64,000 nucleotides of DNA from contig CATNEN010000001.1 of NCBI GenBank assembly GCA_950097015.1, positions 3,906,001 through 3,970,000 on the forward strand, read 5' to 3'. A model generated the notes under the pieces. It saw only the letters and a program-made list of their open reading frames with translations. It was not told where the DNA came from and made no database searches. This stretch comes from Macrostomum hystrix (Eukaryota; Animalia; Platyhelminthes). Shown piece by piece: positions 20,346-64,000 of this stretch (within the stretch, counting starts at the first letter, position 1; each line of letters starts with the position of its first letter). Made by a program: the position numbers and the translations under genes.

Positions 20346-21149
20346 CTTCTGAGTCTGTGGGGGTCGGTTTGAGACGCTCTGAAGTTTGCTATGATTGGGA
20401 TTAGGAGCAACACAAATTGTAGGATCAGGGAGATTAATGGCTGATACACAGAAAGATAATACATAATACATAATACATTATGCAGGAGTGCTGTGGGCAC
20501 TGCCACAACCCGCAGCCAGCGAGGAGGCAACTCTGATGTTCACTGGCAGATTAAACTAATCACTGAAATGACTAAACTATATAATATGAATGTATGCGGC
20601 CTCGCCGCGGAATCGAGCTCAGGCACCTTGGTACGAGAGGCAAACGCGTTAGATCGATCTGATCCAATATTGAAGGATATGGAATGACTAGACTCAGTCA
20701 CTGAGTACCACTTACCAGTTATTTAGCGACTTTAGCGAAATCGGAAGCTTTCAATTGTTGAGCAGAATGTGATTCAAATAAAATAAGCTGCTTGTCACTA
20801 TGGAACTAAGCCTAAATGACTTGGGGGAAAATGGCTGCACTATTTATAATCATCTTCATTTTCATGGCCAGTCTAGTGTACTAGAGGCAGGCATCAGGCT
20901 TAAGGTAAAGAGATGAAGTCAATCCCCATTGGTTGGAGTCGCATAGACTGCTAGACGCTGGCCGATGCTAATGTACACTTGATAGGCTTCACACTCCGTG
21001 CAATGGATGCCGCTTTGGAGACAGATGGAGTGTTTCCTATCAGACAATGTCAAAAACACTCCTTACTAACTTGTCCTTTGGTGACTAGGTCAATTCTTGT
21101 CGAATTAAGACACATCAATAACTTCGATATAATCATATGTAAGGATGTA

Positions 21150-31952: not shown

Positions 31953-32413
31953 GTTGCAGTCTATTTAAAGTTGCAGTCTATTTAAAGTTGCAGTCTATTT
32001 AAAGTTGCAGTCCATTTAAAGTTGCAGTCTATTTTAAAAGTTGCAGTCTATTTAAAGTTGCAGTCCATTTAAAGTTGCAGTCTTTTTAAAGTTGCAGTCT
32101 ATTTAAAGTTGCAGTCTATTTAAAGTTGCAGTCTATTTAAAGTTGCAGTCTATTTAAAGTTGCAGTCTATTTAAAGTTGCAGTCTATTTAAAGTTGCAGT
32201 CTATTTAAAGTTGCAGTCTATTTAAAGTTGCAGTCTATTTAAAGTTGCAGTCTATTTAAAGTTGCAGTCTATTTAAAGTTGCAGTCTATTTAAAGTTGCA
32301 GTCTATTTAAAGTTGCAGTCTATTTAAAGTTGCAGTCTATTTAAAGTTGCAGTCGATTTAAAGTTGCAGTCTATTTAAAGTTGCAGTCGATTTAAAGTTG
32401 CAGTCTATTTAAA
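31953..32413. repeat. 17-bp minisatellite (gttgcagtctatttaaa)
   Basis: About 27 copies immediately 5' of the LINE ORF. Confidence 0.95.
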
Positions 32414-35400: not shown

Positions 35401-35590
35401 GCCAGCTACTGCGATCCCGGCGCCTGCAGCTGGCCGGACACGTCTTTCGAGCGGAGCAGCGCTGCCAAGAGCCCCTGCAGGATGTACTGTTGCTTTCCCT
35501 GCAGGGACCGCGGCGGCGTGGCCAGGCGAGGACAGTGCGCTACGTCGACCTGCTTCTGTCGGACGCTGGCATCTCCGACCCCCGTGGAGT
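32414..35590 (+). mobile_element. Non-LTR retrotransposon (RTE-like; APE endonuclease + RT), inactivated
   Basis: APE motifs ATWNCRTL, LQE, YAPT, LGDFNA, LDHV, SDH. RT motifs GVLQGDTLAPFLF, YADD, FLYLG, then LAGHV. Frameshift near 33490 and stops at 33636, 33903 and 35334. Confidence 0.93.
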
Positions 35591-36013
35591 GACAATTCTG
35601 CGAAACGCTGCGCTTTTTAGTTTTAAGTTTCATTACTGTAAATACGTTTTCTATAAAAATATATGTAAAAAAATATATAAAAAGAGAAAATTTAAAATCG
35701 CGCCAAAAAGAACTATTTTGTTTTATTTTGTACCGTAAGAAAAATAATGCCGCATGTAAATATTTTGTTTTATTTTGTATCTTGTAAATAATACTATGTA
35801 AAAAGTCGCCATTAAAACAAAAGTTAATTTTTTACTGTATATATAGCCGCAATTTTGACTGGGAAAATATAAGTCGTTTAAGTCGTTTAAGTCGTTTGAG
35901 CTTGCTAAAGTTTACTAAAGTGTTCTGAAGTTGAAGTTTTCGAAGTGTTTAAGAAGAGTTTCTAAGTGTGTTTTAAATCAAAAGATTCAAGTGTTGCATT
36001 GTGTTATTCATTT

Positions 36014-36862
36014 GCATCTTTGCCAAAGGTTCATCAGCGAGTGGGGCTGCAGAGTCATAGAATCTCAGGCAGGAAAGAATTTGCTTAAAGCGATCTCTCG
36101 ACAGAGAGAACGACTGAGCTAGAAAGCCACAGTGAAACACGGAATCACCGGACCAGTAGTGGGCCAGCTCCGGCTTCTGGTCGATGCCCATGAGCAGTAT
36201 AATGCCAATAAGCTTGCGCATTTCATCAGTTGAGCAATCCTTCCAATTCAATATGATTTTGGGGACAGCATCCAATGTCTCGCATTCTTGAAAAATCTTC
36301 CAAGCCTTGTTGTCGGTCCATCTGCGAAGGTTCTCGAACAACTCGTCCGGCAAATACAACTTTAGGTAGGCCGACTCATTTCCATCGGCAGTTTCTGGTG
36401 GCTGCCAGTTGGGCCGAACTCCAGTGGTTCCCAGAAACTCGGGGACTGGAGATGGTCTGTTGTCAAGAGTTTCCTGAACGAGCTCCCAATCACCGACTGG
36501 GATTACAGGGACTTCATTAATCTCTTCGAAAAGCTCTTCGAAGTCGCTAGCAGATTCATCGTCGGTTACAATGGGTGAATCTAACGCAGAATCTATTTCA
36601 GAGTCAGAACTCATGATGCGTTTTTGCTGTCTTAGTCTGTTGTCGAGAAAATATCTTTAAAAATTAGGCTTGACAGCCTTAAAAAACAGAGGAACGAAGA
36701 AAATCTAGTTACTACGTGGCGAATCTGTTTGAAACATGCTTTCAGTCGTGAAGGGTGTGTATGTGAGTTAAAAATTTTCTACCAAAAAAATTCTATGGCA
36801 CGATTTCGGTCCAAGCCGTCAGGAACGGGTGTGTGTGTATAAAAGGGCAGTCAGGAAAAAGG
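36014..36862 (-). mobile_element. 3'-deleted piggyBac transposon
   Basis: ORF from 36614 with piggyBac N-terminal motifs (EMRKLIGIILLMGI, HYWS, LSRDRFKQILSCLRF, DEPLAK). The 5' end reads ttaa|cctttttcc at the LTR's own TTAA site. Confidence 0.88.
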
Positions 36863-36990
36863 TTAAGAGAGACTAGCAGTGAGAAATATACTCAGAACTA
36901 TACTCAGAACTATATTCAGGACTATACTCGGAAATATACTCAGAACCATACTCAGAATTATACTCAGAACCATACTCAGAATTATACTAA

Positions 36991-38669
36991 TGATGTGGAG
37001 TGTGCTGCGGGAATCGAGTGGGAGTGTGAGCCAGCATAATTTTTCAAATTTTTAAGTGTCTAATAATTGCGACCCACATAGCAGCTGGCCGCAAACACGA
37101 TCATTAATCTTAGGGCCGGGTTTGGGGCGGCGGTGAATTAAGTAGCCGTCGAATCCCTTCTCCCTGGATCTGTCTAGACCCCTGTAGGAATGACTGATCG
37201 CGGCCATAGCTTTTATTGTATGAGTAGTTTAGGTCATAATTCTCCTCCAAACCGCGATCAGATATAGGGGGTCACTCGGGCGTTATGAGTGATCATTAAT
37301 TCTTCATGTCCCCTCTTCTTTACAGTATTCGAGCCCAGCTCGACTTTATGACCTCCTTCCTTTTAGATACATGTAAATGTCACTGTAGGCAGGTCGGCGC
37401 CTGCGCTTCCCATTGTCCCGGCGGAGTAACAATCGCTGGCTGACTGCCGACGGCTGTTCGCGCAGGACATCTGTCGTTTCCCGCCGCCGGTTCATTGGGC
37501 AATTGGGGCGGCAATCGCCGCTTCAATTCCTCGATGACAGGCTGGCGCGAATGTGGGTTATTTTGATGGATGTCGGGGTTGGCGTGCTGCAAGGCCTATT
37601 TAAGCAAGCGCGCTGCGCTGCTCCCTCTAGGACCTCTTTTCTCCCACCGGCTCTTCCCCTTTCTCCCTGCCGGTTTACCTTTGCCGGGCCGGAATCCCAC
37701 CGGACCCAGGACTTGTCCCCCAGATCCACTTAGGGCTTAGACCCTAGAGCTTAGAGCTCCACGGCTAGCGCAGGCCCATTGCCTGTCCCCATTCCCCCTG
37801 AGCGCGAGCCACCTCTTTAGGTGGGCCGTTAAATTGAGCCTTGAGCTCCAAGCGTGTTGGCCCCTGCCAACTCGCAGCACTTCCCTCCCCTGTCTCTGCT
37901 GTCTTACCCCACCCCCTTCCCGAGATCAACGGGATTGCAGCACGCGGCCGAAGCGACTCCAGATAAGTAACCCGCGCAGCGGTTTTTTTGCAATTATTGC
38001 TCCTAAGGGACTTTCTATTAATTAGGCGGCTATTAGTGGGCACGGGCTTAGGATTTGAGGCTTAATATACGGACCATTCATTCGCCAATTATTAAAACAT
38101 TAGGCCAAATTTAATAACAATTTAAATCTTTCCGCCATGCTGTTATTTCCTCTTTATTTTCTCATTAGACAGCCCTCTACCATGAGTGGCTAATCTATTA
38201 GGGGAATGGGCTCTGGCACAGCCGAGCTGAAAGCTGCGGCAGGAAGGCAATTGTGAGCGCGCATGAGAGTAATATGGAGCTAGGGATGTGCAAGTAAGAT
38301 GCGGAGTGTAGCACGTGTTTCTTTCTGTCCAGGGGTGGGGAATTCCCTGGCGGGTTTTCCCCATTTCCTGGCGGATCTGGGAGTGCGTGTCGAGCTCCCC
38401 TGCCAATTGAGTTTCCCTTCTGTTTCCCCCTCTCGCTTCTACCGCCAGGGAAGTGGGGGGTGATGACCTTTTAACCTTACGCTTGCATAATCACTCAGCC
38501 AGTGTTCAGCCTAATCTCTCCTGCCTCTGATTTCCTCATCTCGCACAGATTCGGATTTGTTAGTGACCTAATGTGTAAGCTGCAATCTAATGTAAGGAAT
38601 GTGCCTGATGTTTTCATGAGTAGGATTCCGGCTATGGATTCTCATTCGAGTTCTTAGTACCACCTTTCT
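36991..38669. mobile_element. 1.7-kb insertion, possibly a solo LTR of another family
   Basis: Interrupts LTR copy C precisely, is flanked by an actaa duplication and starts TG. Weak terminal inversion and no credible ORF. Confidence 0.55.
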
Positions 38670-38942
38670 ACTAAGAGTATTGCAAAAAGGAAACTGCTAA
38701 ACTCTCGGGGACGCCTAATTGACTGGAAACGTGTACAGTTGCCTAATTACCGCTCGTGCAAATACATACGCTACCATTTGAGAAGCTAAAACGGCCCATT
38801 TAAGGACCGCCAGTCAAATATCTTTTAAATTGAGTCAACAGCAGTGAAATTGTTAAAATAGCCCCGTTACAACTTTGGTGTCTGAAGTGGGATTTTCTTA
38901 TAAAAGCCTGTTATTAAATATTGTAAATTTAGCCCTAGTACA

Positions 38943-39785
38943 ATATCTGCTCGACGATCGATGCGAAGCAAAATGGACAGCTGACGTTCCTCGCATTGAC
39001 TTGAATTTCTCTTTGCTATTTCCATTTGCTATTGCCATGCTATTGCTTTTAAACCATTCGCCCATAATGTCACAAAAGTAGTTCAACCACTGTACGGCAG
39101 CTTCCGACTCGACTCCGTACATATATCGTCTGCAGAGATCTGTGGACGAAAACAAATGAATTAGTAAATAGAATTACTACTACATCTCCACTATACCCCC
39201 CTCAGCTTCGGTTTACGATCCTATGCGTGGAGAATCTGTATGTAAATGATCGTAAACCGAAGGTAGTGTGTATCCCGATAGTGATTAATTTCGGTTTACT
39301 GCTACTACTTACACCAAAACACCCTAACTTCGGTTCACGATCATTTACATGTATTTCTGCCATTTTAATGATCGTAAACCGAAGTGGATATATAGGACTT
39401 AATTTACTCACTTTTGCGACACCGAGCAGATAATATGTGATGAAGCCTACGATGTCCATCGGATTCAACTTTGATCCTTCGAAGAAGGAGAATATCCGGG
39501 TGGATACGCGTTTTTCATGGGCACCAAACGGAGACTTGGTTGGTTTATTGTTGGTTTTGCACCGAAAAACGAGGCCGTCTGCAGTGTTGTGCGCAGGCGT
39601 CATTTTCATTGCGCTATCGCATGTTGGACACGACATTGGCTCAGCGCGCTATAGAAGACCTTCGGCTTAAAGTAGTGAAATCCAATTTCCTTTGTCAATG
39701 AATCGCCATGCCATGGGAGAAACTAGTGTGACGAACTAGAGTTCGTGTGCAGACGAGTTTTCCCAGAAGTCCGAAGACATTATGC
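38943..39785 (-). pseudogene. Merlin/IS1595(ISXO2)-like transposase N-terminal remnant
   Basis: CPTC..AM...DGLVFRC...H.KRVSTRIFSFFEGSKL, then AVQWLNYF after an apparent intron. This matches the Zn-binding N-terminus of this family as I recall it. No catalytic domain was seen. Confidence 0.62.
39200..39398. repeat. Short palindromic element built from ttcggtttacgatc motifs
   Basis: Four motif copies in alternating orientation. The right end is the inverse of 31913-31953. Confidence 0.65.
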
Positions 39786-41875
39786 AAGACCAATAACGAT
39801 TTCTTAAAGTCAACCAAGGCTTGTCAGCGGAAGCGCCAGGGTCCCGGTTACTTGTTCTCGACTTCAATGTGGTTAGTCTCCAGCTAATTAAAATGACTTA
39901 ATTATTTCAAATGTCTGTACTCCTTAGACTTTAGCTATATTCCGCTCCGACGCTCGCGCTTGCGCCACAAACCGTCTTTCAAGTTGTATTTAAATTTGCG
40001 CCAGGTTTCGAGGAAAGATAAAGTAAACAAAAAATAAAGTGACATCGTCACACTTAGGTCGGCTATTCCGTTCAGTTTTTCCAGTGAAACGAACAATCCT
40101 GGTTTCTCAATTTTTGTTTCTTTTGAGCAGGCCATGATCACTGAAATGGAAAAATACATGCGGATCGGAACCGAAATACGGGTATGTAGTATTTTGAGGT
40201 TTGCCGCTTTCACGCGAGCTCGATTCTAATGTATCATTATGTTTTTAATAGTAATTTTACATGATAAAGTTGGCGCTATTAATAGTTTCGCAATTTTCGA
40301 GTATTCGCAATACATTTGTTTTAAATTGTAAAAAATAATTTTTAAAACAGAATTACACTGCGAGCATCGATGAGCGGTACTTAACGTTTGTCTGAGCGAC
40401 AGCGTGTGTGGCGAGTGTATTGTCCGAAAGTGAACTGATTTCTCTCCCGTTAATTTGAAATGCCGTACTGTTGAGAGAAAGTGTTACAGGTAGAAAATTA
40501 TCGTAAACCGATAAAGAATGCCGTTTCAACAGTGCCCTTAAAGACCTTAATAACTGCAAAAGTAATTTATTTTGTGCTAAGCTTAACTTCCTGAAGTTAT
40601 GCTGAAAAAATGTATAATATTTTAGTATTTTATTTTAACATTGTATTCATGTTAGATTTAAAGATAAATAATGTATTATACTGGTCTAGCTAGGTAAGAC
40701 TAGGTAAATTTTACATGTAAGACTATGTTTCACTTTCAAGTACAATTTATTATATTATTTATAGTTTATGAAGCTTGATATGGATCTTGAACACATGCTC
40801 CAAAATATTTGGATATGACAAGAATGGATTATCATATTCCTTCATTTGTATTAGCATAAGTTATTTAGCAATTAAAGTAGGGCCTAAAAGTTTAAAATGC
40901 TTCCTTAGTGAAATCTAGCAAAACCCAGCAACATACACAATACTTGTCTTGCAAGGCTTTTTAGGTTGCCATTTTTACATTGAAGGCAAGAAGGCAAACA
41001 CTGCCTTTTCATTCAATATTGTGTACCAGGGCTTACTTCTTTTTACTTATTTCTACTGAATGCCACCAAAGTTGTACAGGTGGAAATTAATTATCTCACC
41101 GTTGTTATCAAAGTTGTACTGGGCTATTTTAATATTTCTACTACAGTTGACTCACATTAACTGGTGGACCTTAAAAGGGCCGTTTTAACTTCTCAAATGG
41201 TAGCGTTTCTATATGCACGAGCGGTAATTAGGCAACTGTATACTTTTCCAGCCGATTAGGCGTCCCCGAGATTAGAGTTTAGCAGTTCCCTTCGATAATA
41301 TTCTTAGTATAACTTCTGAGTATAATTCTAATTATACTTCTCACTGCTATCTTCCTTTAAAATGAATAACACAATGCAAAGCTGTCGGAAATTTATTTTT
41401 TTAAACACACTTAAAACTATATTTACAAACACCTCTTGAAAAACTACTTCAACTTTTAAACTCTTTAAACACTCTCCTGAAACACTTTAATACTCTTGTA
41501 CAAAGGCTTTCAGCTTTTAACTCAACTCAACAATTTCAACTTCAACTCTAAAAACACACACTTCGAAACACTCTTACAAACTCACTGAAACACTTTGAAC
41601 ACTTTCGAACTCTCTCGAACTCACACACAGGTTATTTTTCCAGACCAAAAGTGCGGCTATTTATAGTGAGAAAAATTAACTTTTGTTTAAACGGGAGCAT
41701 TTTACATAATATTATTTATAATATGCAATTTAAAACAAAATTATTTACATACAGTATTACTTTTGATACGGTACAAAGATAAACAAATTATTATTTTTTT
41801 GGCGCATTTTTAATTTTATTTATTTTTATAATTTTTATAATAGAATAACGTATATACAAGAGGCTAACTATTACA

Positions 41876-41889
41876 ACTTTCCCTCTCTA
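41876..41889 (-). other. Polypurine tract
   Basis: agagagggaaagt immediately before the 3' LTR TG. Confidence 0.85.
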
Positions 41890-41937
41890 AACAAAGAAAT
41901 TTGAACGAAAAACAGAAAAAGAGTGAAAATTTCTTTT

Positions 41938-42606
41938 CTAAAAAGTACAGTTGTTCGGCAAGTCTTTAAAGTAGGGGAAATTTACTTGATTGAACAACCA
42001 GCGAAACTCGATATTCACCAATTGTCGTTGAAAAGTCCTCGAGTCGGCTTGCCGCAGGCGCTGTAGTTCTCGTCCGATTGCGGCGTAGAGGATTACAACC
42101 TCCGGCTGTGCCATCAGCTCTTTTAGCGCCCTTACCGCCGCCCATACTTGTGCTCGTTGGGGCAAGGCCTCGTCCAGCCTTAGGTAGGCTACTCTTGTTA
42201 AGTAGCGCAGAATGGCGAAGCGGAGCCGTTCGGCATGCTCCCCGTACTTCACCATCAATTCTTGATATGTCAGTTCGGTTGATGGCGGTGGCGGAGGCGG
42301 CGGCAGTGCTTCGGCAGCGGGTTGACCATGCTTAACCGCCGGCGCAATGACGATTTGGCACGTGCTTCTGGTACCCGGCGTATTCTTAGCGTGCCTCTCG
42401 ACTGGTGTTACCGCCTGGGCCGCCATTACGTCTGCTCTCCTCTTGTGGGGGTCCAGCTGTCGCACCTTAGTTGGCGAAGAAGTTCGCGGCCGCTTTCCTG
42501 CTACCGGTTGAGGCCTCGTTGGTTGTCGCTCTGGTGCTGATATTTCGGCGTCAAGATCCACTTCAGGTTCTAGAGATCGCAGTAATTCGTCCAGCTCGTT
42601 GTCCAT
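41938..42606 (-). CDS. Gypsy accessory ORF3, 222 aa, unknown function (not env-like)
   Basis: Open frame from MDNELDELL. A homolog at 60940-61410 differs mostly by synonymous changes. Confidence 0.85.
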   Translation of the reverse strand: MDNELDELLRSLEPEVDLDAEISAPERQPTRPQPVAGKRPRTSSPTKVRQLDPHKRRADVMAAQAVTPVERHAKNTPGTRSTCQIVIAPAVKHGQPAAEALPPPPPPPSTELTYQELMVKYGEHAERLRFAILRYLTRVAYLRLDEALPQRAQVWAAVRALKELMAQPEVVILYAAIGRELQRLRQADSRTFQRQLVNIEFRWLFNQVNFPYFKDLPNNCTF

Positions 42607-42654
42607 TTCTCTGCGCAAATTAGCTTTCCTTCTCAAAATTGTTGCTCCTAGATG

Positions 42655-42752
42655 CTGACCCTCCCTTCATTATATAGGCTTTGGGGGTTGGCTAAAAACG
42701 AAATAATCATGGATACTGTTGTCAAGTCCTAACTCGCTTGCTATTGGCTGGC
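42655..42752 (-). promoter_or_regulatory. Putative internal Pol II promoter for ORF3
   Basis: The minus strand has gccagccaatagc (CCAAT) and cctatataatg (TATA) upstream of the ATG. Both are conserved at 61465-61557. Confidence 0.6.
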
Positions 42753-42979
42753 GCGGAAGGTGGGGTTAGGCAGACTCACGGCTGTGTGGCGTGGGCCGGG
42801 AGAAAAGTGGCTGAACATAGTTTGAGCATAGTGAGCATAGCAAAATTTTCCTTTCTTTATAAAACCGTTAAATTTCAATTTTAATCTTCAAGCAAAATGT
42901 TTTTGGAAAGCTGGCATCAAAACGAATACATTGGTTTTTAAATTTTTCAAATATCATATGCCGTTCTCATTTTATTGAC

Positions 42980-43003
42980 TGGCGGCACTAAAAAGGGCCG
43001 TTT
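42980..43003 (-). terminator. Histone-stem-loop-like element after the pol stop
   Basis: AAAC-GGCCCT-TTTT-AGTGCC-GCCA; identical at 61779-61794. Confidence 0.55.
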
Positions 43004-43012
43004 AACTATTTT

Positions 43013-46000
43013 CTACTGTCCATTATTCATTCTCTCGTAGTTAATCGCATTGTTACGTGGTCTAAGATTATATCTTGCTTCAGGAACTTGGTCCTCTTCA
43101 TACTGCTCAGCTTCTTGTTCGATTGGTTCATCTTCTTCAGCTTCTTCTTGAATTTCTTCCTCAATTTCTTCTTCTATTACACTCTCAATTTCTTCTTCTT
43201 CAGATTCTTCAATGTCTTCAGGCTCTCTTATTCTCCACTGAAATCTTCTTTCATCTTCTTCTTCTTCTTCTTTTTCTTCTTCTTCTATCACAATTTCTTC
43301 TGTTCTCTTCTTCTCCTTGACTTTTGTCTTCTGCTTACTAATCTTCCCTCTCTTAATTTTTGGCTCTGTCTTTTTTTCTTGTTGTTCTTCTGGAATTTCT
43401 CTCTCAGAGTTCGGGACTGGTGTGAGGTTGTTTCGGTGAACCAACATTTTCTCACCTGTTCTCGTTCCTTCAATTTCCTTCTGCACTCGGAAAACTGTGT
43501 CACTCATCTGCGCTAATACTCGGTATGCTGCGCGCTTTTTGCGATGGAATTTGTTGCTTTCATCGACATGCAATTGTGGGTTGTTGATTAGAGCTAAGCA
43601 TCCTACTGGGATAATCTTAGGCTGTTTACTCTCAGCAGAGATTTCTTCTCGTTTGTCTCGAATTTTCTCTAACTTCTTCTGAACTATTCCTCTGACTTCT
43701 TCGAGTCGCTTCGCATGATCAGCTACATAGCTCGGATAATCACTGTACTGCTTCGGCTTCTTAATAATGTTATCAATGGGCAAATCTGCTTCTCGGCCAA
43801 ACAGTAAGTAATGTGGAGTGAATCCAGTAGTCTGATTCACACTTGTTCTGACAGCTACTAGTGCGGCTGGGATTAGCAAATCCCAATCAGAGTGATCTTT
43901 CTCCACTAGACAGGTAATGATTGACTTGATTTGTCTATTAAATCTCTCGACCAGTCCGTTACTTTGTGCATGATAAGGCGTTGTGCAGGTATGTTTGATT
44001 CCATACAGAGCACAAAATGCCTGAAACTGCCTACTCACGAATGTCTTACCATTATCGGTATGTATCCACTGACACTGGCCGTATTCACTAAAAATTCTCT
44101 CTTGGATCAGCTTAATGACGGTGTCGGACTTTTGATTCCGAATTGGGAAAGCGAACGGGAACTTAGTGGTACTATCCACAACAGTGAGTACATAACGGTA
44201 TCCTCGCTTACTTTCTTTGGAGATTGGGCCGATAATGTCAATGTGCAGCCGGTGAAATGGTTCGCAGATTGGGAACATCTGTACCGGCGCTTGCACTTTA
44301 CTGCCGACCTTACTCTCTAGACACGGAATACACTCCGAAATATATCGCTCAATAGAGGTCACCAATCCTGGTTTCCAAAACCTCTCACGAACACGCTGAA
44401 TGGTTTTATCACGCCCTAGATGACCTGCGAGAGGACTGTCGTGCAATTCTTTTAGCACATCCTTCTCAATAGCCTCTGGCAAAACCACTTTCCTTTTTCC
44501 GTCTTCTTCAATCACCAGCATTTCATCTTCGATTCTCATGTGTTCATAAAACTTCGCCATTTTCTTCAATTCTTTACTCGCGTTCTCAGGTACTTTTGGC
44601 TCTCGGACATCTTGTTCCTTCCAATCTATCAGTGTCCTTATAGAGGGATCTTCATGTTGAGCTGTTGTCAACTGTTCCTTCTTTAACGGGACATTGAGAT
44701 AGTCGGTTAGAAGTTTCCGACACACGGCCTCATTATGTAATTCTTCCTCAAAATAGTCTCTAGCATCTTCATATTCTTCATAATCATCGTCTTCTTCGTC
44801 TGAGGACTCAATTTCTCTAGTCAGGGAAGTTTGACAGCTCTGATGCACGAGGCTTGGGCTGCATTGAGACTGTTGTTCTGACATTTCTTCTCTTGAATTA
44901 ACTGACTGGTTTCGATTCACTGTAATGGCAGGAGGCTCAGCTTCTACCTGTGGTTCTTCCTTCTGGACCTTTTCTTCGTTGGACTTTTCCGGTGGTCTTC
45001 TAGATAGGCTGTCTGCATTTCCATGCTTTGCTCCACTTCTATGCTCAATATCATATTGGAATTCGCTCAATCTCTCAATCCATCTTCCTAAGATTCCTTG
45101 CGCCTCGGTTTGTCTCAGCAACCATAAGATTGCCTTATGATCTGTGCGAGCCAGAAACCGTTTGCCTATTAGGTAGAACCTGAAATGCTTCATCCCGTCT
45201 ACTAGTGCAAGCAATTCCTTCCTTGTAATCGGGTATCTCTTTTCAGATTCCTTCATCGCTCTGCTAAAATATGCTATGGGCCTTTCAACTCCATCAGATT
45301 GAATCTGACCTAGGCAGGCGCCAATTCTTCCATCGCTAGCATCTGTATCAAGCACCATTCTTACATTTTCATCATCCGTGAACTCAGGATATGCCAGTAC
45401 TTCAGTGGAAGTCATCTTCCTTTTAAGTAGCTCAAAAGCTTCATCATGTTTTTTAGTCCACTTTTCCTTAAAGTTCTGAATTCCTTTCTTGGTTAACTGG
45501 AATAGCGGATTCGCTGCTTCGGCATAGTTCCGAACAAATCTACAATAGTAGTTACATAGTCCGAGAAAACTTCTTAGCTCCTTGACATCCTGTGGTGTTG
45601 GCCAGGTCTGGATTGCCTCTATTTTGGCAGGATCGGTACTTATTCCTTCTCTTCCAACAACATGACCTAGGTATTTCAATTCCTTTTGAAACAGATTACA
45701 CTTCTTAGGTCTCAGCTTCAGTCCAGCAGTTGATAGTCTTTGAAATACTTCTCGTAGGTGGCTCATATGATCTTCAAATTCCTTTGAATAAGTGACAATG
45801 TCATCAATGTAGGACATAGCGTACTTGTGCTGGATACCCATTAACACTAGGTTCATCAGTCTCTGGAATGTTCCTGGGGCATTTGATAAGCCCTGAGCCA
45901 TCACTTGATATTCAAACTGTCCTCGAGTCAAGGTGGAGAAGGCTGTTATGAACTTATGTTCCTCCTTGATGGGTACCTGCCAGTAACCGGAGTTCAAGTC

Positions 46001-47539
46001 TAGGCTGCTGAAGTAGTTGCTTCCAGTCAGATGCGAGAAAGTCTCTTGTATATTCGGCAATGGGTATGGATAGTAGTTGACACGAGAATTCAACACTCGG
46101 AAGTCACTAACAATCCTGATAGTTCCATCTTTCTTTGGCACTATCACCAATGGTGTCGAGTATGTACTATAACAAGGTCTTATTAAATTCTTTACAAGCA
46201 TGTCATCAAGCTGTTCGTCTACTTGCTTCTGTAGATGTGGTGGAATTCTACGGGTTGGAATCCTGACCGGAGTAGCATCTTTTAATGAGATCTCATGGGT
46301 TACCAGGTGGGTCAGACCCATGTCTTGATTAGTCTGAGAGAAGGCTGATCTATTCTCCTTTACTAACTCAACTACTCTTGCTCTTTGCTCTGCTGTTAGC
46401 TCTTCACTGATGTTAATCTCTTTGATCCATTCATCATCCTCCTCAGCTTCATTGCTTTTTACTGTCTTGATTCCTCCATCAGTCTTTGCATTAGGTAATT
46501 TTTCCTCTTTCTGACTATTCAGGTAAACCAGATCTTTTACTTTTAATGGTTTTGCGACTCCAATGAAAGTTGACTTGGATAAGCGAACATCGCTACTTTG
46601 CTGATTGATTACTTCCACTACACCTTCTCCGTTCGTCATTGTTACAAGAGTCGGACTTATTTCCAGACTACCTTCTTTTGTGATTATACTTCCTCCGGAT
46701 CGCTCAATTACCATAGGTGTGCCATGATTTGCTTCATTATTTCTGGCCAATTTTACAGGTATTCTCAATGCACTATTAGCTGGTATAATAATTCTTCCTT
46801 GGCAATATACTCGGCAGACTCTGACTGGTAGCTTAGTGAATCGAATAGGAAGGCAGATTCCATCCTTCATCACTAACATTCCTTTTGTGAAGCTGACATT
46901 CTCGCAATGATTCATAAAAAACTCCATGCCTAGGATATCATCACAGTCGTGACTGCACAGCAAAAACTCTGTCTCGATTTCAACATCTCCAAATCTGACC
47001 TTTGTCGTAATTTCACCTTCAATTCTGACTTTCGATCCATCAAATGTGGTTACTCTTCTATCTGACGGCTCAATCTCATGACTTTTGAACATCTTTTTCC
47101 ATGAACATTTACTAAGAAAATTATGACCGGCTCCAGTATCTAACAAGAAATCAACTTTCTGTTTCCGAATCTCTCCACTCACAACAGCTTCACGTCCTTT
47201 CTTGATCGGTTCTTCATATTCACTGGTTTCTGGGGTAATTTCGGCATGTACCTCTGTACTTTTAATCTTCTCATTCAAGTTTCCACGCGTAGGTGCATAA
47301 TCGCATTTAGGTGCAAGCGGCTTATTTACAGTGGGTGCATTAGGTGCATAATAATTCGCATGACTATTTACACTCTTCTTTGGCAAATAAAACTTATTAT
47401 ACTCGTCACTTCGCTTATGTACAAACTTCTTCTGATTAACCTTATACGCATTATTTACAAATTCAGAGGCCTGAGCTTCGTACTTTCTATTTCTTGAGGG
47501 ACGTGGCCTCGCAGTTCGACCCTCGGCAATCAGTTTCCC
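43013..47539 (-). CDS. pol: Gypsy Pol (protease, RT, RNase H, integrase, acidic tail)
   Basis: Motifs FLLDTGA, YIDDI, LDTDAS, HHCC, HIDIIGP/HTDNG/NGLVERFN. The frame stays open upstream to the slippery site. Confidence 0.96.
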   Translation of the reverse strand, partial: GKLIAEGRTARPRPSRNRKYEAQASEFVNNAYKVNQKKFVHKRSDEYNKFYLPKKSVNSHANYYAPNAPTVNKPLAPKCDYAPTRGNLNEKIKSTEVHAEITPETSEYEEPIKKGREAVVSGEIRKQKVDFLLDTGAGHNFLSKCSWKKMFKSHEIEPSDRRVTTFDGSKVRIEGEITTKVRFGDVEIETEFLLCSHDCDDILGMEFFMNHCENVSFTKGMLVMKDGICLPIRFTKLPVRVCRVYCQGRIIIPANSALRIPVKLARNNEANHGTPMVIERSGGSIITKEGSLEISPTLVTMTNGEGVVEVINQQSSDVRLSKSTFIGVAKPLKVKDLVYLNSQKEEKLPNAKTDGGIKTVKSNEAEEDDEWIKEINISEELTAEQRARVVELVKENRSAFSQTNQDMGLTHLVTHEISLKDATPVRIPTRRIPPHLQKQVDEQLDDMLVKNLIRPCYSTYSTPLVIVPKKDGTIRIVSDFRVLNSRVNYYPYPLPNIQETFSHLTGSNYFSSLDLNSGYWQVPIKEEHKFITAFSTLTRGQFEYQVMAQGLSNAPGTFQRLMNLVLMGIQHKYAMSYIDDIVTYSKEFEDHMSHLREVFQRLSTAGLKLRPKKCNLFQKELKYLGHVVGREGISTDPAKIEAIQTWPTPQDVKELRSFLGLCNYYCRFVRNYAEAANPLFQLTKKGIQNFKEKWTKKHDEAFELLKRKMTSTEVLAYPEFTDDENVRMVLDTDASDGRIGACLGQIQSDGVERPIAYFSRAMKESEKRYPITRKELLALVDGMKHFRFYLIGKRFLARTDHKAILWLLRQTEAQGILGRWIERLSEFQYDIEHRSGAKHGNADSLSRRPPEKSNEEKVQKEEPQVEAEPPAITVNRNQSVNSREEMSEQQSQCSPSLVHQSCQTSLTREIESSDEEDDDYEEYEDARDYFEEELHNEAVCRKLLTDYLNVPLKKEQLTTAQHEDPSIRTLIDWKEQDVREPKVPENASKELKKMAKFYEHMRIEDEMLVIEEDGKRKVVLPEAIEKDVLKELHDSPLAGHLGRDKTIQRVRERFWKPGLVTSIERYISECIPCLESKVGSKVQAPVQMFPICEPFHRLHIDIIGPISKESKRGYRYVLTVVDSTTKFPFAFPIRNQKSDTVIKLIQERIFSEYGQCQWIHTDNGKTFVSRQFQAFCALYGIKHTCTTPYHAQSNGLVERFNRQIKSIITCLVEKDHSDWDLLIPAALVAVRTSVNQTTGFTPHYLLFGREADLPIDNIIKKPKQYSDYPSYVADHAKRLEEVRGIVQKKLEKIRDKREEISAESKQPKIIPVGCLALINNPQLHVDESNKFHRKKRAAYRVLAQMSDTVFRVQKEIEGTRTGEKMLVHRNNLTPVPNSEREIPEEQQEKKTEPKIKRGKISKQKTKVKEKKRTEEIVIEEEEKEEEEEDERRFQWRIREPEDIEESEEEEIESVIEEEIEEEIQEEAEEDEPIEQEAEQYEEDQVPEARYNLRPRNNAINYERMNNGQ
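47495..47539 (-). promoter_or_regulatory. -1 ribosomal frameshift signal
   Basis: G GGA AAC directly before the gag TGA; pol is in the -1 frame; downstream gaggg...ccctc stem. Confidence 0.85.
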
Positions 47540-48525
47540 TGCGCCCGATAGCGCGGTTGTCTGGACTCTTGACAGAATCTGGCCATATGACCTGGCTTTC
47601 CACAGTTGAAACAGGTTCTGGGTTGCTGCTGTTGCTGCATCATTGGCTGTGGCCTGTTGTTATTACGAAATCCTGCCTGCTGTTGCTGGCTAGGCGGGGG
47701 TTGGGCTCTGACAGCCTGGGCGTACGTCTGACGCTGTGGATTCTGTAGAAACTGCTGCTGCTGTTGCATTTGCTGTTGCTGATAGCCATCTTTCTTCTCT
47801 GTTAGTTCTTGTAGCATTTTCCGCTGCTGAGCCAGCTCCATCATCTGTTTCCTCACCAGTTCTTCCAACCTTTCCCGAGCAAGCTTCTCTTGCTGGTTAT
47901 CCTCATCTTCCTTGGCCATTCTTACACCAGAATTATTTCTGTGTGACATACACCAGGCAGCCTCTATGCGCCTGAGAATTCTCTTCGCATCCTGCAGATT
48001 CGCTGGCTGGGCGAAAATCAGCTTTTCTCTGGTCTCTGTCGGAACCTTGGCTCCCCTAATAAACTGCTCTACCAGCTCTTCTTCTCGCTGTTCTATCGTC
48101 ATATTAGGAAATGCCCTTGCGGCTAATTCAATCAAGCAATCGGAAAATGCTTCAGCAGATTCATTTCTTCCTTGCATCCTTCCTCGAAATTCCTCTCGAC
48201 ATTCCGCAGAACTGCCAGTTCTTCCAAATCGCTCAATAAGTCTGTCTTTGAACTCTTGATATTCTAGATCTTCAGGAAGGTTCATTCGTTGAACTGCAGC
48301 GAAGGCCGTTGATAAGTCCAGATTGGCAAGCACTTCCTGCTTCCTGTTTTCTTCCGGAAAATCATCTGCATCACATCGGAGATCAAATGCCAGCAGCCAC
48401 ATCCTGATGTCTTGTCCTGGCTTAAATTTCTCAATTTTCACATGGCGCGTTGGCCCGATTTCGAGTCTGTTTCTCAGTTCCTCGGCTAACATAGCCATTA
48501 AATCTTGAGCTTGTGCCTGATTCAT
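47530..48525 (-). CDS. gag: Gypsy Gag, 331 aa
   Basis: Retrotransposon capsid-like region (QGRNESAEAF) and CCHC knuckle CFNCGKPGHMARFC. Confidence 0.95.
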   Translation of the reverse strand: MNQAQAQDLMAMLAEELRNRLEIGPTRHVKIEKFKPGQDIRMWLLAFDLRCDADDFPEENRKQEVLANLDLSTAFAAVQRMNLPEDLEYQEFKDRLIERFGRTGSSAECREEFRGRMQGRNESAEAFSDCLIELAARAFPNMTIEQREEELVEQFIRGAKVPTETREKLIFAQPANLQDAKRILRRIEAAWCMSHRNNSGVRMAKEDEDNQQEKLARERLEELVRKQMMELAQQRKMLQELTEKKDGYQQQQMQQQQQFLQNPQRQTYAQAVRAQPPPSQQQQAGFRNNNRPQPMMQQQQQPRTCFNCGKPGHMARFCQESRQPRYRAQGN

Positions 48526-48556
48526 CTTGCTTTAATCGCTGCTTCTCTAATCCTTT

Positions 48557-48568
48557 CCGCTGCCACCA
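48557..48568 (-). other. Primer-binding site, tRNA-Leu
   Basis: TGGTGGCAGCGG, 4 nt after the 5' LTR, complementary to the tRNA-Leu 3' end ...CCGCTGCCACCA. Confidence 0.88.
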
Positions 48569-50049
48569 AAGTTGTACCAGGGCTTACTTCTTTTTACTTA
48601 TTTCTACTGAATGCCACCAAAGTTGTACAGGTGGAAATTAATTATCTCACCGTTGTTATCAAAGTTGTACTGGGCTATTTTAATATTTCTACTACAGTTG
48701 ACTCACATTAACTGGTGGACCTTAAAAGGGCCGTTTTAACTTCTCAAATGGTAGCGTTTCTATATGCACGAGCGGTAATTAGGCAACTGTATACTTTTCC
48801 AGCCGATTAGGCGTCCCCGAGATTAGAGTTTAGCAGTTCCCTTCGATAATATTCTTAGTATAACTTCTGAGTATAATTCTAATTATACTTCTCACTGCTA
48901 TCTTCCTTTAAAATGAATAACACAATGCAAAGCTGTCGGAAATTTATTTTTTTAAACACACTTAAAACTATATTTACAAACACCTCTTGAAAAACTACTT
49001 CAACTTTTAAACTCTTTAAACACTCTCCTGAAACACTTTAATACTCTTGTACAAAGGCTTTCAGCTTTTAACTCAACTCAACAATTTTAACTTCAACTCT
49101 AAAAACACACACTTCGAAACACTCTTACAAACTCACTGAAACACTTTGAACACTTTCGAACTCTCTCGAACTCACACACAGGTTATTTTTCCAGACCAAA
49201 AGTGCGGCTATTTATAGTGAGAAAAATTAACTTTTGTTTAAACGGGAGCATTTTACATAATATTATTTATAATATGCGATTTAAAACAAAATTATTTACA
49301 TACAGTATTACTTTTGATACGGTACAAGGATAAACAAATTATTATTTTTTTGGCGCATTTTTAATTTTATTTATTTTTATAATTTTTATAATAGAATAAC
49401 GTATATACAAGAGGCTAACTATTACAATTGTCAATATTGCCCATATTGGTGCCAAATTTGATTGTATGTAGATCTATTATTGTACTAGCAACTTGCTTGG
49501 CTAATAATTGGTATAAGTAGTCAAGATGCTAACAATTAAACCTTCAAAAGCAAGATTCAGCTAGTTGTCTTGTTATTCACCTGTGAAAAAGATGTAGTCA
49601 ATTGTATGCATTTGAAATATAAAGTGCAACTTCCAGAATCTCAGCTGGTCATGCAACTTAGTTTGGAATAAAAAAGGTGACACATTGCAGCAGATAAGTT
49701 TGATAGCAATAAATACTAGGGCTGGCAATTGGGGAATTATTTTTGGGGAGTTGGGGATTGGGGAATCATAAAAGTTGAGAAACTTGGGGAGTCGGGGATT
49801 GGGGAGCTTTCAGAAGTCGGGGAATCGGGGAGTTGGGGACCTAAAAAAGTTGAGGAGTCGGGGATTTGTGAGTATAGGTAAGAAAATAATAACCAAGAGA
49901 ACTTTGCCATTTTGCAATGGAAGTGGAAGAAATTTTAAACACAAGCAGGAAGATTCAAGCCATTCATTCCGTAAATGGCTTAAAAAGAGCAATTTGCTGA
50001 TTACTCAAGTTCTTAAAATACTTTTGCCTTGAATGCAATTACCTGCACA

Positions 50050-60294: not shown

Positions 60295-63200
60295 CTTCTC
60301 TTCTGTAATATTCTTAGTATAATTTCTGAGTATAATTCTGATTATATCTCTCACTGCTATTTCTTAAAATGAATAACACAATGCACACAATTACCTTCGG
60401 AAATTTGCTTTTTTTAACACACTTAAAAGTTCTATTTATAAACACACTAAAAACTCCTTCAATTTCAACTTCAATTCTTTAAACACTTCAAATTATCTCA
60501 ACCTTTAAACTCACTCTTTAAACTCTCTTGAAAACACTTCAAACTTATGAAAACCTTGAAATCTCTTAAAACCTGACAAACTTTACAAAACTTACTTCAA
60601 CACACACTGACAACGTACAACTGACAACTTTATTTTTCTCTCTGAAAACTCGCCGCTATTTATACACAGGGAATTTAGCGTTTGTTTTAATTCGCATATT
60701 TTACATAATATTATTAACATGATGAAAAGTAAAACAAAATTATTTTCATACAACATTACTTTTAATACGGTACAAAGATTAACAAAAGATATTTTTGGCG
60801 CGTTTTTGATTTTTATTTATTTTTTTCGATTTTATAATAAGAGCAAGAACGTATATACATAATGAAATGGCTAAAACACTGTCACAACTTCCCTCTCTAA
60901 AAGAAAAATTTGAATAAAACAAAATAAGTGAAATTTTTTCTAAAAGTTGCAATTTTGCGGCAAGTCCTTGAAATACGGGAAGTTCACTTGGTTAAAAAGC
61001 CAGCGAAATTCTATAATCACTAACCGATGCTGAAAAGATCTGCTATCGGTTTGCCGCAGGCGCTGAAGTTCTCCTCCTATTGCTGAGTAGATGGTCATTA
61101 CTTGCTGCTGTGGCATCAGTTCCTTGAGTGCTCGAACCGCCGCCCACACTTGCGCTCGCTGTGGCAGGGCCTCATCCAATCTTAAGTAGGCGATCCTTGT
61201 GAGGTAGCGGAGTATGGCGAAACGGAGCCGTTCCGCGTGCTCTCCGTTGTGCTGGTCCATTTGCCGTACCTTGATGGGTGAGGAGGTTCTTGGTCGTTTT
61301 CCTGTCACTGGCTGAGGTCTCGTCGGCTGTCGCTCAGGTGCTGCTATCTCGGCGTCGAGGTCTACTTCCGGCTCCAGTGATCGTAACAGTTCGTCGAGTT
61401 CGTTATCCATTTCTCTTTTCTGCGCAAATTAGCTTTTCACAATGGATGCTCTTAGGTGTTGACCCTCCCTTCATTATATAGGCTTTGGGGGTTGGACAAA
61501 AGCGAAATTATCATGGAAACGGTTGTTCAGTTCTATCTCGATTGCTATTGGCTGGCGTGGGAGGTGGGGTTTAGGCAGACTCACGGCTGTGTGGCGTGGG
61601 CCGGGAGAAAGGTGGCTGAGCATAGTTGAGCATAGCAAAATTTTCTTTTCTTCATAAAATTTTTAATATTCAACTTTAAGTTTCGAGTAAAACGTTTTTG
61701 GAAAGCTGGCATCAAGACGAATACATTGGTTTTTTAATTTTTCAAATATCTTATGCGGTTCTCATTCTGTTGACTGGCGGCACTAAAAAGGGCCGTTTAA
61801 CTATTTTCTACTGTCCATTATGCATTCTCTCGTAGTTAATCGCATTATTACGTGGTCTAAGATTATATCTTGCTTCAGGAACTTGATCCTCTTCGTACTG
61901 CTCAGCTTCTTGTTCGTTTGGTTCATCTTCTTCAGCTTCCTCTTGAATATCTTCCTCAATTTCTTCTTCCATTACACTTTCGATTTCTTCTTCTTCAAAT
62001 TCTTCAATATCTTCAGGTGCTCTTATTCTCCATTGTAATATTCTTTCATCTTCCTCTTCTTTTTCTTCTTCTTCTTCTATCACAATTTCTTCTGTTCTTT
62101 TCTTGTCCTTGACTTTTGTCTTCTGCTTATCAATCTTCCCTCTCTTAATTTTTTGGCTCTGTATTTTCTTCTTAATTCTTCGGATGTCTTCTTTTTTCCA
62201 AACTATCAGGTCCTTATAGAGGGATCTTCATGTTGAGCTATTGTCAACTGTTTCTTCTTTAACGGGACATTGAGATAGTCGGTCAGAAATTTCCGATACA
62301 TGGCCTAATCTCTGGCACATTTTCCTCACTTTTCTCTCGAGAGCTCAACTTCTTTTCACACTTATCAGTCAGGGAAGTCTGGCAGCTCTAATGCACAAGG
62401 CTGAGGCCGCATTAAGACTACTGTTTCTGATATTTTTTTCTCTTCGAACGACTTACTGACTTCACTTCTTTCTCCTGAAACATTAACTTTTGATCTCCTT
62501 TCTTTTGAAATAATCAGCTGGCATCGAGTCGGATTAGTTACAGAAGTCTGACATCTCCTTTCGTTGTTTATCCTAAATTTTACTTTGCTTGTTATTTATG
62601 TGAGTAGGCATAATCGTTTATCTTTCTGCGGTTGCGTGTTTTTAGCATAATAATTTGCATTTTAACTTGTTTATATTTTTATTGCTTTTGTTTCTTTTCT
62701 TTATAGCATGTTTACACAGTTTATATACACAAAGCATTTCTATACACTATTTACAAATTCAGCTTCATCCTTCACAGTTCCTGTCGGACACCTTCATTTA
62801 TTCTCAGAGCGTTTCAGGATGACTCTGCACACATGGTAACCTGGTCTTTTGTCCTCTTGTTCTTTGCTGATTCTGCTTTTTATTTCTGTTGATGTTCCGG
62901 GTGTACCACATTGGTAGCACCTGTTGAACATGTGGAAATTGTCCTTCGTTATGGTCTCATGATTCCTTTTTCCTCTTCCAGCTGATCTATTCTCAGTTGT
63001 TTGTTTTCCAAACAATGAGGGATGAGCTGGCTGCTGGTTCATCAGCACTGCCATAATCAACATTATAATCGACATCTTAACTGCTTTTCACTCTGTTTTA
63101 ATCGCTGCTTCTCTAATCCTTTCCGCTGCCACCAAAGTTGTACCAGGGCTTTACTTAACAACTGGCTTTTATAAGAAAATCCCACCGCTGTTATCAAAGT

Positions 63201-64000
63201 TGTTGCAGGGCAATATTATTAAATTTAACTTTAAATTTTAAATTTAAATTAAAATTTAAATTTAAATTTAAATTTAAATTAAATTTATTCAATCGCTGAC
63301 ACGCTGACACCGAAGTTGTTACAGGTGGAAATTAACTATCCCACCGCTGTTATCAAAGTTGTGGTAGGCGTGCTTTCTTCTTTTTACTTAAATTCTACTG
63401 AATGCCACCAAGGTTGTACTGGGGCTATTTTAATAATTTCACTGCTGTTAACTCAATTTAAAAGATATTTTTAAATGGCGGTCCTTAAATGGGCCGTTTT
63501 AGCTTCTCAAATGGTAGCGTATGTATTCGCACGAGCGGTAACTAGGCAACTGTACACGTTTCCAGTCAATTAGGCGTCCCCGAGATTAGAGTTTAGCAGT
63601 TTCTCTTCTGTAATATTCTTAGTATAATTTCTGAGTATAATTCTGATTAGATCTCTCACTGCTATTTCTTCTTAAAATGAATAACACAATGCACACAATT
63701 ACCTTCGGAAATTAGCTTTTTTAACACACTTAAAAGTTCTATTTATAAACACACTAAAACTCCTTCAATTTCAACTTCAATTCTTTAAACACTTCAAATT
63801 ATCTCAACCTTTAAACTCACTCTTTAAACTCTCTTGAAAACACTTCAAACTTATGAAAACCTTGAAATCTCTTAAAACCTGACAAACTTTACAAAACTTA
63901 CTTCAACACACACTGACAACGTACAACTGACAGCTTTATTTTTCTCTCTGAAAACTCGCCGCTATTTATACACAGGGAATTTAGCGTTTGTTTTAATTCG
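60295..64000 (-). mobile_element. Internally deleted, non-autonomous Gypsy (copy B)
   Basis: Truncated 3' LTR 60295-60886, PPT, ORF3, pol tail 61808-62160 and degraded gag/pol pieces. PBS at 63123-63134; the 5' LTR runs from 63139 past the window end. Confidence 0.9.
60940..61410 (-). CDS. ORF3 homolog, 156 aa
   Basis: Intact frame with an in-frame loss of 66 central residues relative to copy A. Confidence 0.82.
   Translation of the reverse strand: MDNELDELLRSLEPEVDLDAEIAAPERQPTRPQPVTGKRPRTSSPIKVRQMDQHNGEHAERLRFAILRYLTRIAYLRLDEALPQRAQVWAAVRALKELMPQQQVMTIYSAIGGELQRLRQTDSRSFQHRLVIIEFRWLFNQVNFPYFKDLPQNCNF

Follow-up and report, generated by a model that had tools for sequence, protein, structure and literature searches.

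We conclude that a Ty3/gypsy LTR retrotransposon, element A, carries stem-loops whose likeness to the histone mRNA 3' element is genuine and not due to chance. Judged from the sequence, we tentatively suggest that element A uses these imperfect loops, located 13 nt behind pol and in the LTR, as weak signals for the host SLBP/U7 histone mRNA machinery, mainly after pol. Element A is intact and recent. It shows the order PR-RT-RH-INT with gag, and direct LTRs with TG..CA ends, a target duplication, a predicted primer site and a predicted polypurine tract. It shares the window (the whole stretch of Macrostomum hystrix DNA that was analysed, 64,000 nt) with two related copies, B and C.

41022..49426, minus strand: element A, intact Ty3/gypsy LTR retrotransposon; its 854-nt LTRs show 3 differences, 4-nt target duplication ATTG, Pfam PR, RT, RH, INT and zf-CCHC
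48573..49426, minus strand: 5' LTR of A
49348..49356, and again 41797-41805, minus strand: 9-mer in U3 of A that we take to be an E2F-type site; identical in B and C
49208..49216, minus strand: predicted LTR TATA box; 29 nt behind it AATAAC (A), AATAAA (B) or AATATA (C), then a GT-rich tract
48551..48568, minus strand: predicted primer binding site
47530..48525, minus strand: gag
43013..47659, minus strand: pol (PR-RT-RH-INT), an open frame overlapping the end of gag
42962..42976, minus strand: a purine-rich run, candidate downstream element, overlapped by an AATAAA that is present in A only
42670..42800, minus strand: ORF3's predicted internal promoter, with GC box, CCAAT and TATA; conserved in B too
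41938..42606, minus strand: ORF3, 222-aa orphan with a helical C-terminal domain; an AATAAA ~115 nt 3' of it is kept in A and B
41877..41888, minus strand: predicted polypurine tract
41022..41875, minus strand: 3' LTR of A, with AATAAA at 41824 and 41820 in U3
60296..64000, minus strand: copy B, a deleted relative that has lost gag and most of pol; ORF3 open, 3' LTR cut before the loop; extends past the window
35628..38942, plus strand: copy C, a solo LTR belonging to a third subfamily and interrupted by two insertions; its start is approximate

The pol RT-RH of A is 90% identical to M. lignano BOX15_Mlig011037g1. In a quick tree, which contains no named references such as GyDB members and is relied on for this three-member clade only, element A groups with two M. 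lignano proteins (BOX15_Mlig011037 and Mlig004203; SH-aLRT 100). Metagenome contigs searched with pol alone yielded no close relatives, and a search with an alignment yielded only distant ones (80 + 1 loci). Two older relics of the LTR end and primer site were found inside the LTR of A, at ~48669 and ~48627, the oldest LTR-end relic lying ~45 nt behind the LTR loop.

Six histone-like loops had been described in a sequence-only reading of this DNA, and all six 16-nt cores were recovered at their positions with the flanks given for them.

48717..48732, minus strand: loop in the 5' LTR of A; mismatch at pair 3, 191 nt upstream of the gag ATG
41166..41181, minus strand: loop in the 3' LTR of A; 756 nt 3' of the ORF3 stop
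42984..42999, minus strand: loop behind pol of A; mismatch at pair 4
61779..61794, minus strand: pol loop of B, same sequence as that of A
63480..63495, minus strand: LTR loop of B; neither pair 3 nor pair 6 forms
38793..38808, plus strand: LTR loop of C; neither pair 3 nor pair 6 forms

Five of the six lie on the minus strand and that of copy C on the plus strand, each being the sense strand of its own element. Using a 24-letter IUPAC histone stem-loop consensus as the search pattern, we obtained 6 sites in the window with at most two mismatches (one mismatch in 2 sites, two in 4), the match spanning 22–23 of the 24 positions of the RNA consensus and taking in the two arms as well as the 3' flank. 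Zero sites were obtained with at most 3 mismatches in 60 dinucleotide shuffles of the window, with at most 4 in 300 shuffles of element A, or with at most 5 in the distant gypsy loci (81/81, 542,816 nt), and loop patterns searched in viral and prokaryote contigs gave 0 matches. With 4 mismatches, where chance alone predicts 0.1 such sites, a hairpin at 6502-6525 was rejected as a further, seventh copy. The six sites hold only three distinct cores, since the LTRs of A are copies (3 differences), a single core is common to B and C, and A and B separated recently at their pol ends (0/12 four-fold sites differ). This recent divergence leaves the identity of the pol loop between A and B with little weight as evidence.

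Measured against histone 3' ends, the loops are imperfect. The proposed check with Rfam RF00032 gave 21.7 bits for the LTR loop of A and 15.9 bits for its pol loop, both below the gathering threshold of 34, and the model missed the LTR loops of B and C (no match at E<=10). Instead of six pairs around a four-base loop, the A LTR and both pol loops form 5/6 pairs; the LTR loops of B and C form 4/6, a two-pair-missing state that no more than 36 of 44,646 Rfam loops show. The single stem mismatch first described thus applies to A and to both pol loops, whereas the LTR loops of B and C, correctly called weaker, miss two pairs each. The SLBP contact positions are invariant across sites. The G-C pair in stem position 2, along with U at loop positions 1 and 3, is kept in 6/6 sites; the former together with the U at loop position 3 is diagnostic (Zhao et al. 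2026, bioRxiv 10.64898/2026.10.14.759114), and loop U1 and U3 are SLBP determinants (PMC4604434). The flanks are A-rich 5' (AAAC in 6/6) and of the ACCA type 3' (ACCA in 2, GCCA in 4), and the 5' half of the motif (AAACGGCCC) is invariant while the 3' arm varies.

The usual stop-to-loop distance is 25–60 nt (median 30), and metazoan histone loops have an MFE of -7 to -10 kcal/mol (Zhao et al. 2026, bioRxiv 10.64898/2026.10.14.759114). Here, the pol stem begins 13 nt 3' of the pol stop, as the sequence-only reading had it, the LTR loop lies 756 nt from the ORF3 stop, and the 26-nt MFE ranges from -4.3 to -7.0 kcal/mol with unremarkable folding z-scores (-0.3 to -1.9). The pol loop is predicted to fold with a probability of 0.77–0.95 in a 216-nt context, the prediction for A collapsing in 2 of 6 contexts tried, and the LTR loop of A would form in just 4–12% of the ensemble in most longer contexts. 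Predictions show no difference between the 5' and 3' LTR loops, and the idea that they fold differently was dropped as unsupported. Behind the pol loop, AATGAGAAC is common to A and B, as claimed, and purines make up 10/13 nt in A and 9/13 in B. Only 5–7 of the 13 nt behind the LTR loops are purines; no conserved downstream element is found there, and an 11–13 nt indel sets A apart from B and C. The AATAAA after the pol loop is indeed present in A and absent in B, but an argument built on its loss is weak because B lacks most of pol.

The proposal that loops end both transcription units suits the pol loop, which sits where a terminator would be needed, between the pol stop and the second (ORF3) promoter. 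It fits the LTR loop poorly, given its distance from the ORF3 stop and its second occurrence in the 5' LTR, 144 nt upstream of the LTR end and primer site, a position that places it in the leader of every full-length transcript. A small ORF ending immediately 5' of the LTR loop was also considered and found unsupported: by eye, each of the three frames has stops, and C shows a 5-nt gap.

The pol and LTR loops share a sharply bounded island of 29–35 nt around the histone element, their other flanks being unalignable (local score 38 for A and C vs a maximum of 29 in 200 shuffles; for B 30 vs a shuffle maximum of 34, not significant). The motif itself is the conserved unit common to two places in the element. 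A motif no more conserved than its flanks would have spoken against the histone-type interpretation, and that is partly what we observe: between A and B, the LTR loop is 22/25 identical and its upstream flank 85/95. Conservation falls directly 3' of the loop (22/25, then 35/60). The mismatch sits at different pairs in the two paralogous loops, the pattern expected from independent weakening.

ORF3 evolves under purifying selection, with 32/58 four-fold sites differing and residue changes in 21/156 codons. Neither a Pfam search nor a homolog search gave a match, and viral and prokaryote contigs contained no ORF3 relatives. Its structure models have low confidence (pLDDT 46 and 64), and a fold search gave no specific match (the best, at Z 6.0 and rmsd 6.4 with 74 aligned, being generic helices).

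How might such loops work? The proposed mimicry of histone 3'-end processing is favoured by the non-chance likeness, the invariant SLBP contacts and the position of the pol loop; against it, all loops fall below the Rfam cut-off, and the LTR loop has neither the spacing of histone messages nor a conserved downstream element. In a broader scenario, which we regard as possible but doubtful, the SLBP/U7 pathway forms the 3' end of the retrotransposon's gag-pol mRNA and perhaps also of its genomic RNA, the weakened hairpins serve as a leaky message/genome switch, and an E2F-type promoter confines the life cycle to the S phase of flatworm stem cells. In our preferred reading, the LTR promoter would fire in cycling cells because of its E2F-type site, which is invariant across the three U3 versions (A, B and C) and was present by chance in 44/3000 shuffled U3. 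SLBP would bind the pol loop and some transcripts would be cut ~5 nt behind it, yielding a separate non-polyadenylated gag-pol mRNA that ends upstream of the ORF3 promoter, is translated mainly in the S phase of stem or germ cells, and leaves that promoter shielded from read-through. Stem mismatches would keep both signals leaky, letting a share of the transcripts run through both the 5' LTR loop and the pol loop to yield full-length genomes; this leakiness is an after-the-fact account of the mismatches. Finally, and as the weakest of the four steps, the genomic RNA may terminate at the 3' LTR loop. Ordinary AATAAA signals could supply every 3' end. Planarian stem cells contain non-polyadenylated stem-loop histone mRNAs (PMC10954484, PMC6312358).

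The loops may instead descend from, or merely resemble, a captured histone 3' end that now has another RNA role, the LTR loop forming the final hairpin in a conserved leader block of ~200 nt close to the primer site, for packaging, dimerisation or strand transfer, and all transcripts being polyadenylated at ordinary signals. We consider this conceivable, though on the whole unlikely. Every stem is mismatched, AATAAA words occur at each required 3' end in A, and the LTR loop lies within the block conserved at 85/95, while in models the flank 3' of it can pair ~70 nt upstream and would hide the loop. A TATA box, an AATAAA-like word ~30 nt on and a GT-rich tract are the classic short-R LTR design, and this layout is present; the R/U5 border would then lie directly behind the TATA box and the LTR loop therefore in U5. 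However, the AATAAA-like word is canonical in just 1/3 subfamilies, the leader structure shows no compensatory change (0/30 pairs, 3 sequences), and a decaying relic would not retain precisely the SLBP contacts at two paralogous sites whose flanks cannot be aligned. The two loop regions show no long-range pairing with each other: 137 and 87 of 200 shuffles were equally good.

It is less probable still that SLBP binds but U7 cleavage does not follow, the loops being internal tags on polyadenylated RNA for gag-pol translation, storage or decay in oocytes or cycling cells, with gag-pol bracketed by two loops. The problem of self-cleavage in the 5' LTR would disappear, and the invariant contact positions, the unconserved downstream element of the LTR loop and, in the intact copy, the AATAAA 7 nt 3' of the pol stem all fit such tags. 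SLBP binds the long polyadenylated H2AFX isoform (PMC4604434), and SLBP-dependent polyadenylation is reported for Drosophila maternal histone mRNAs (PMC11997800). Mismatched stems would weaken binding too, though, and the purine-rich run lies at the expected distance behind the pol loop in both A and B. Very improbable is a DNA-level element (a site for a transcription factor or a boundary, used close to both promoters) or a fortuitous resemblance that was duplicated inside the element, which could account for the invariant 5' half beside a varying 3' arm and for the unremarkable z-scores but not for 22–23 of 24 RNA consensus positions matched across both arms and into the 3' flank, each time in sense orientation, with zero such matches in shuffles or in 81 other gypsy loci.

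Use of the pol loop by the SLBP/U7 machinery, if true, would tie the element's protein output to dividing cells and provide a means of limiting transposition to dividing stem cells. Macrostomum stem cells can rebuild gonads, and Macrostomum LTRs have acquired host heat-shock elements (PMC12801592). The words 'histone' and 'stem-loop' are absent from the main text of that M. lignano family survey; its six HSE families (supplement 5) gave 3 short matches, none of them a loop, and the related M. lignano gene ids and SLBP/LSM11 are absent from the supplements searched. Element A resembles the M. lignano Ty3/gypsy (Ty3/Mdg4) elements (BOX15_Mlig011037, Mlig004203), with which it forms one clade, in PR-RT-RH-INT order, TG..CA LTRs and the 4-nt target duplication, but differs in its pol C-terminus, its orphan ORF3 with its own promoter and its histone-type loops. 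Tail-less transcripts, if they exist, would escape the poly(A)-primed 3' libraries used in Macrostomum, and the RNAi and transgenesis available there make the idea directly testable.

With the metazoan histone mRNA 3' end (RF00032 plus HDE; SLBP, U7 snRNP, CPSF73), the loops share the 6+4+6 register, G-C at stem positions 1–2, loop U1 and U3, an A-rich 5' flank and an RCCA 3' flank, and the pol loop in addition its place shortly after a stop codon and the purine-rich run that follows it. They differ in their mismatched stems, sub-cut-off Rfam scores, 13/756-nt spacing, the lack of a conserved HDE at the LTR loop and their retrotransposon carrier. Transposons can employ unusual 3' ends and split mRNA from genomic RNA: non-poly(A) 3' ends are known from barley BARE-1 genomic RNA and from ENE triple helices in plant and fungal transposons, although these signals differ from those of element A. 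To our knowledge, no retroelement of the BARE-1 or ENE type uses a histone stem-loop, and we found no published precedent in the literature for histone-type loops on an LTR element. The HDE-like motifs of human HERV1/LTR12 likewise place a cis-element of the histone 3' end pathway on an LTR element, but that is a U7-complementary motif of 15 nt that takes part in transcriptional repression via NF-Y, without cleavage, and the available text describes no stem-loop (PMC11417402), whereas element A carries a stem-loop of the SLBP type. Replication-dependent histone mRNAs are described as the sole non-polyadenylated cellular mRNAs, and SLBP CLIP in human cells identified no bona fide non-histone target (PMC4604434). 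A retrotransposon in the SLBP/U7 pathway would, if true, break this histone exclusivity and be the first protein-coding non-histone client in a retroelement.

The histone-type stem-loops of this ordinary retrotransposon are real, do not arise by chance and have apparently not been described before; judged from sequence, they are substandard as histone signals. The features concerned are:

41022-49426, minus strand: A, an intact Ty3/gypsy element; LTRs of 854 nt with 3 differences between them, target duplication of 4 nt
60296-64000, minus strand: B, a relative of A with deletions
35628-38942, plus strand: C, a single solo LTR of a third subfamily, interrupted by insertions
42984-42999 (A) and 61779-61794 (B), minus strand: pol loops
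41166-41181 and 48717-48732 (A), 63480-63495 (B), minus strand, and 38793-38808 (C), plus strand: LTR loops
41938-42800 (A) and 60940-61610 (B), minus strand: ORF3, the third gene, with its own GC box, CCAAT and TATA; 222 aa in A
49348-49356, 41797-41805, about 60793 and about 35700: E2F-type site, ~140 nt before TATA in the U3 of three subfamilies
48573-48690 (A), 63150-63420 (B) and 38860-38942 (C): LTR-end/primer-site relics

Element A encodes gag with a zinc knuckle and a PR-RT-RH-INT pol, followed by the loop, a spacer of ~200 nt, GC box, CCAAT, TATA and ORF3; the three promoter motifs are also kept in B. The closest database proteins to its pol are BOX15_Mlig011037g1 (90% in residues 430-900, 76% overall) and Mlig004203g3 (63%), both of Macrostomum lignano, which join A in one long-branched clade (SH-aLRT 100) in a quick tree of 98/163 rows, with two thirds of the unnamed proteins omitted; this pol affinity makes a host in or near Macrostomum likely. 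Two inserts (35973-36656 and 37000-38660) interrupt solo LTR C, one a fragment of a piggyBac-like transposase (Pfam DDE_Tnp_1_7), the other unassigned. Directly before it lies a GC-rich non-LTR retrotransposon with APE endonuclease, RT and broken frames (32413-35600). A long inverted repeat at 39237-39353, with a weak Rfam match to a miRNA model, is probably a MITE-like palindrome. Farther away, at 18780-20477, a long frame without introns holds an aminotransferase class I/II domain (E 3e-43) and is surrounded by numerous minisatellite arrays (600-32400).

All six 16-nt cores, of three distinct types, lie where the sequence-only reading had placed them, on the element sense strand. We searched with a 24-letter IUPAC histone consensus adapted from that reading's text, which matched two window sites with one mismatch and four with two, plus an unrelated one with four. 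Sixty dinucleotide shuffles of the window gave no site with up to three mismatches and 0.1 per shuffle with up to four, and 300 shuffles of element A gave none with up to four. Scanned on both strands, 81/81 distant gypsy loci totalling 542,816 nt held no site with up to five mismatches. Their RT-RH identity to A is only 40-51%, and 66 of the 81 had a co-oriented integrase match, 61 of these with at least 150 nt past the first stop; a looser structural descriptor gave 3 matches there versus 4 in the window. We conclude that the loops are real and no general trait of gypsy elements. The unrelated site (6502-6525) is a strong GC hairpin inside or beside coding pieces that appear, by their motifs, to be sulfotransferase-like; part of it is duplicated at 5979-6102, and its resemblance is probably chance.

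The single stem mismatch noted earlier holds for the pol loop (pair 4 unpaired; 26-nt MFE -7.0 kcal/mol) and the A LTR loop (pair 3; -4.3 kcal/mol) but not for the B/C LTR loop, which misses pairs 3 and 6 (-5.7 kcal/mol). According to Zhao et al. (2026, bioRxiv 10.64898/2026.10.14.759114), histone loops have an MFE of -7 to -10 and lie 25-60 nt (median 30) behind the stop, only 36/44,646 Rfam loops have at least two mismatches or odd loops, and G-C at stem position 2 and loop U3 are diagnostic; SLBP determinants are loop U1 and U3 (PMC4604434). The stem-2 G-C, U1, U3, 5' AAAC and 3' RCCA are retained in 6/6 sites. The pol stop is followed by its loop after 13 nt, the ORF3 stop by the LTR loop after 756 nt. 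Purines at +10 to +22 number 10 and 9 behind the pol loops but 5-7 downstream of the LTR loops, a region in which an indel sets A apart from B and C. The proposed Rfam RF00032 search brought no loop to the 34-bit cut-off (A LTR loop 21.7 bits, A pol loop 15.9) and did not report the LTR loops of B and C. By sequence, then, the loops appear like histone 3' stem-loops at contact positions, yet fall outside that family through mismatched stems, sub-cut-off scores and off-range spacing.

Behind the pol stop, A and B are identical for 38 nt, then differ at 6 of the next 62 and 7 of the next 40 (p about 0.02-0.1, a hand estimate); this is weak evidence, because the pol tail itself differs at 0/12 four-fold sites (10/60 codons differ). 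The LTR loop with its flanks (22/25 identical) is more conserved than the 60 columns downstream (35/60) but not than the 95 nt upstream (85/95): it closes a conserved block on the 3' side and forms no peak of its own. Stronger evidence is the only stretch shared by pol and LTR neighbourhoods, a 29-35 nt island with the loop at its centre, scoring 38 in A and C against a shuffle maximum of 29, and 30 against 34 in B (200 shuffles each). Compensatory changes were seen in 0/30 predicted pairs among three sequences. Strong purifying selection acts on ORF3, in which A and B differ at 32/58 four-fold sites but in the encoded residue at only 21/156 compared codons; the frame is open in B, 66 aa shorter. 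Its protein is not env-like, and family, homolog and fold searches gave no match. Copy B is mosaic (61227-62173 vs 42422-43380): its pol tail is close to that of A, whereas synonymous sites in its ORF3 are almost saturated, which implies that recombination took place between the two genes.

We tentatively prefer the explanation that the element forms leaky 3' ends of the histone type, chiefly at the pol loop, whose position between pol stop and second promoter would suit a terminator. The E2F-type 9-mer, unchanged across the three U3 versions (44/3000 shuffled U3 had such a site), would point to transcription in cycling cells; partial SLBP/U7 cleavage would then yield gag-pol mRNA without a tail, and read-through past the loops genomes. 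In planarian stem cells, histone mRNAs end in a stem-loop and carry no poly(A) tail (PMC10954484, PMC6312358); RNAs of this kind also feed piRNA production (PMC10954484), so such an end would not hide the element.

An RNA end at the LTR loop is favoured by the oldest LTR-end relic, ~45 nt behind it, a usual U5 length, and by a hexamer behind the LTR TATA that is AATAAA in only 1/3 subfamilies. Against it count an R that would be ~470 nt long, the presence of this loop in the 5' leader as well, where it is predicted to fold no differently, the TATA, AATAAA-like word and GT-rich tract of the classic short-R layout, and an AATAAA ~115 nt behind ORF3 in A and B. The relics, of older LTR ends, stand in tandem at the LTR 3' end, each followed by a primer-site-like stretch, presumably resembling tRNA-Leu 3' ends; they differ between subfamilies and suggest that the LTR was extended several times and that the primer tRNA was switched.

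Another RNA role, or a relic, with ordinary polyadenylation is possible though unlikely; intact A has AATAAA 7 nt behind the pol stem, and its loss in B, once offered for a histone-type end, carries little weight because B has no working pol. SLBP binding without cleavage is distinctly unlikely. A DNA element or chance is very improbable beside the shuffle results. The proposed histone mimicry is supported in part: the non-random loops and kept contacts stand, while the weak signals count against it. The bolder reading, in which the SLBP/U7 pathway ends gag-pol mRNA and perhaps genomic RNA, weakened hairpins switch between the two and the life cycle is limited to stem cells in S phase, is doubtful.

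Among the literature matches listed, in a search mostly of papers outside subscription, none described a histone stem-loop on an LTR element, in line with the initial claim of novelty. The Macrostomum LTR survey (PMC12801592) describes, in its accessible part, capture of heat-shock elements by LTR elements, and a keyword search of that text and supplements returned no mention of a histone loop. The nearest case found is human LTR12, in which a U7-complementary motif acts in transcriptional repression (PMC11417402), whereas the Macrostomum hystrix element carries the stem-loop.
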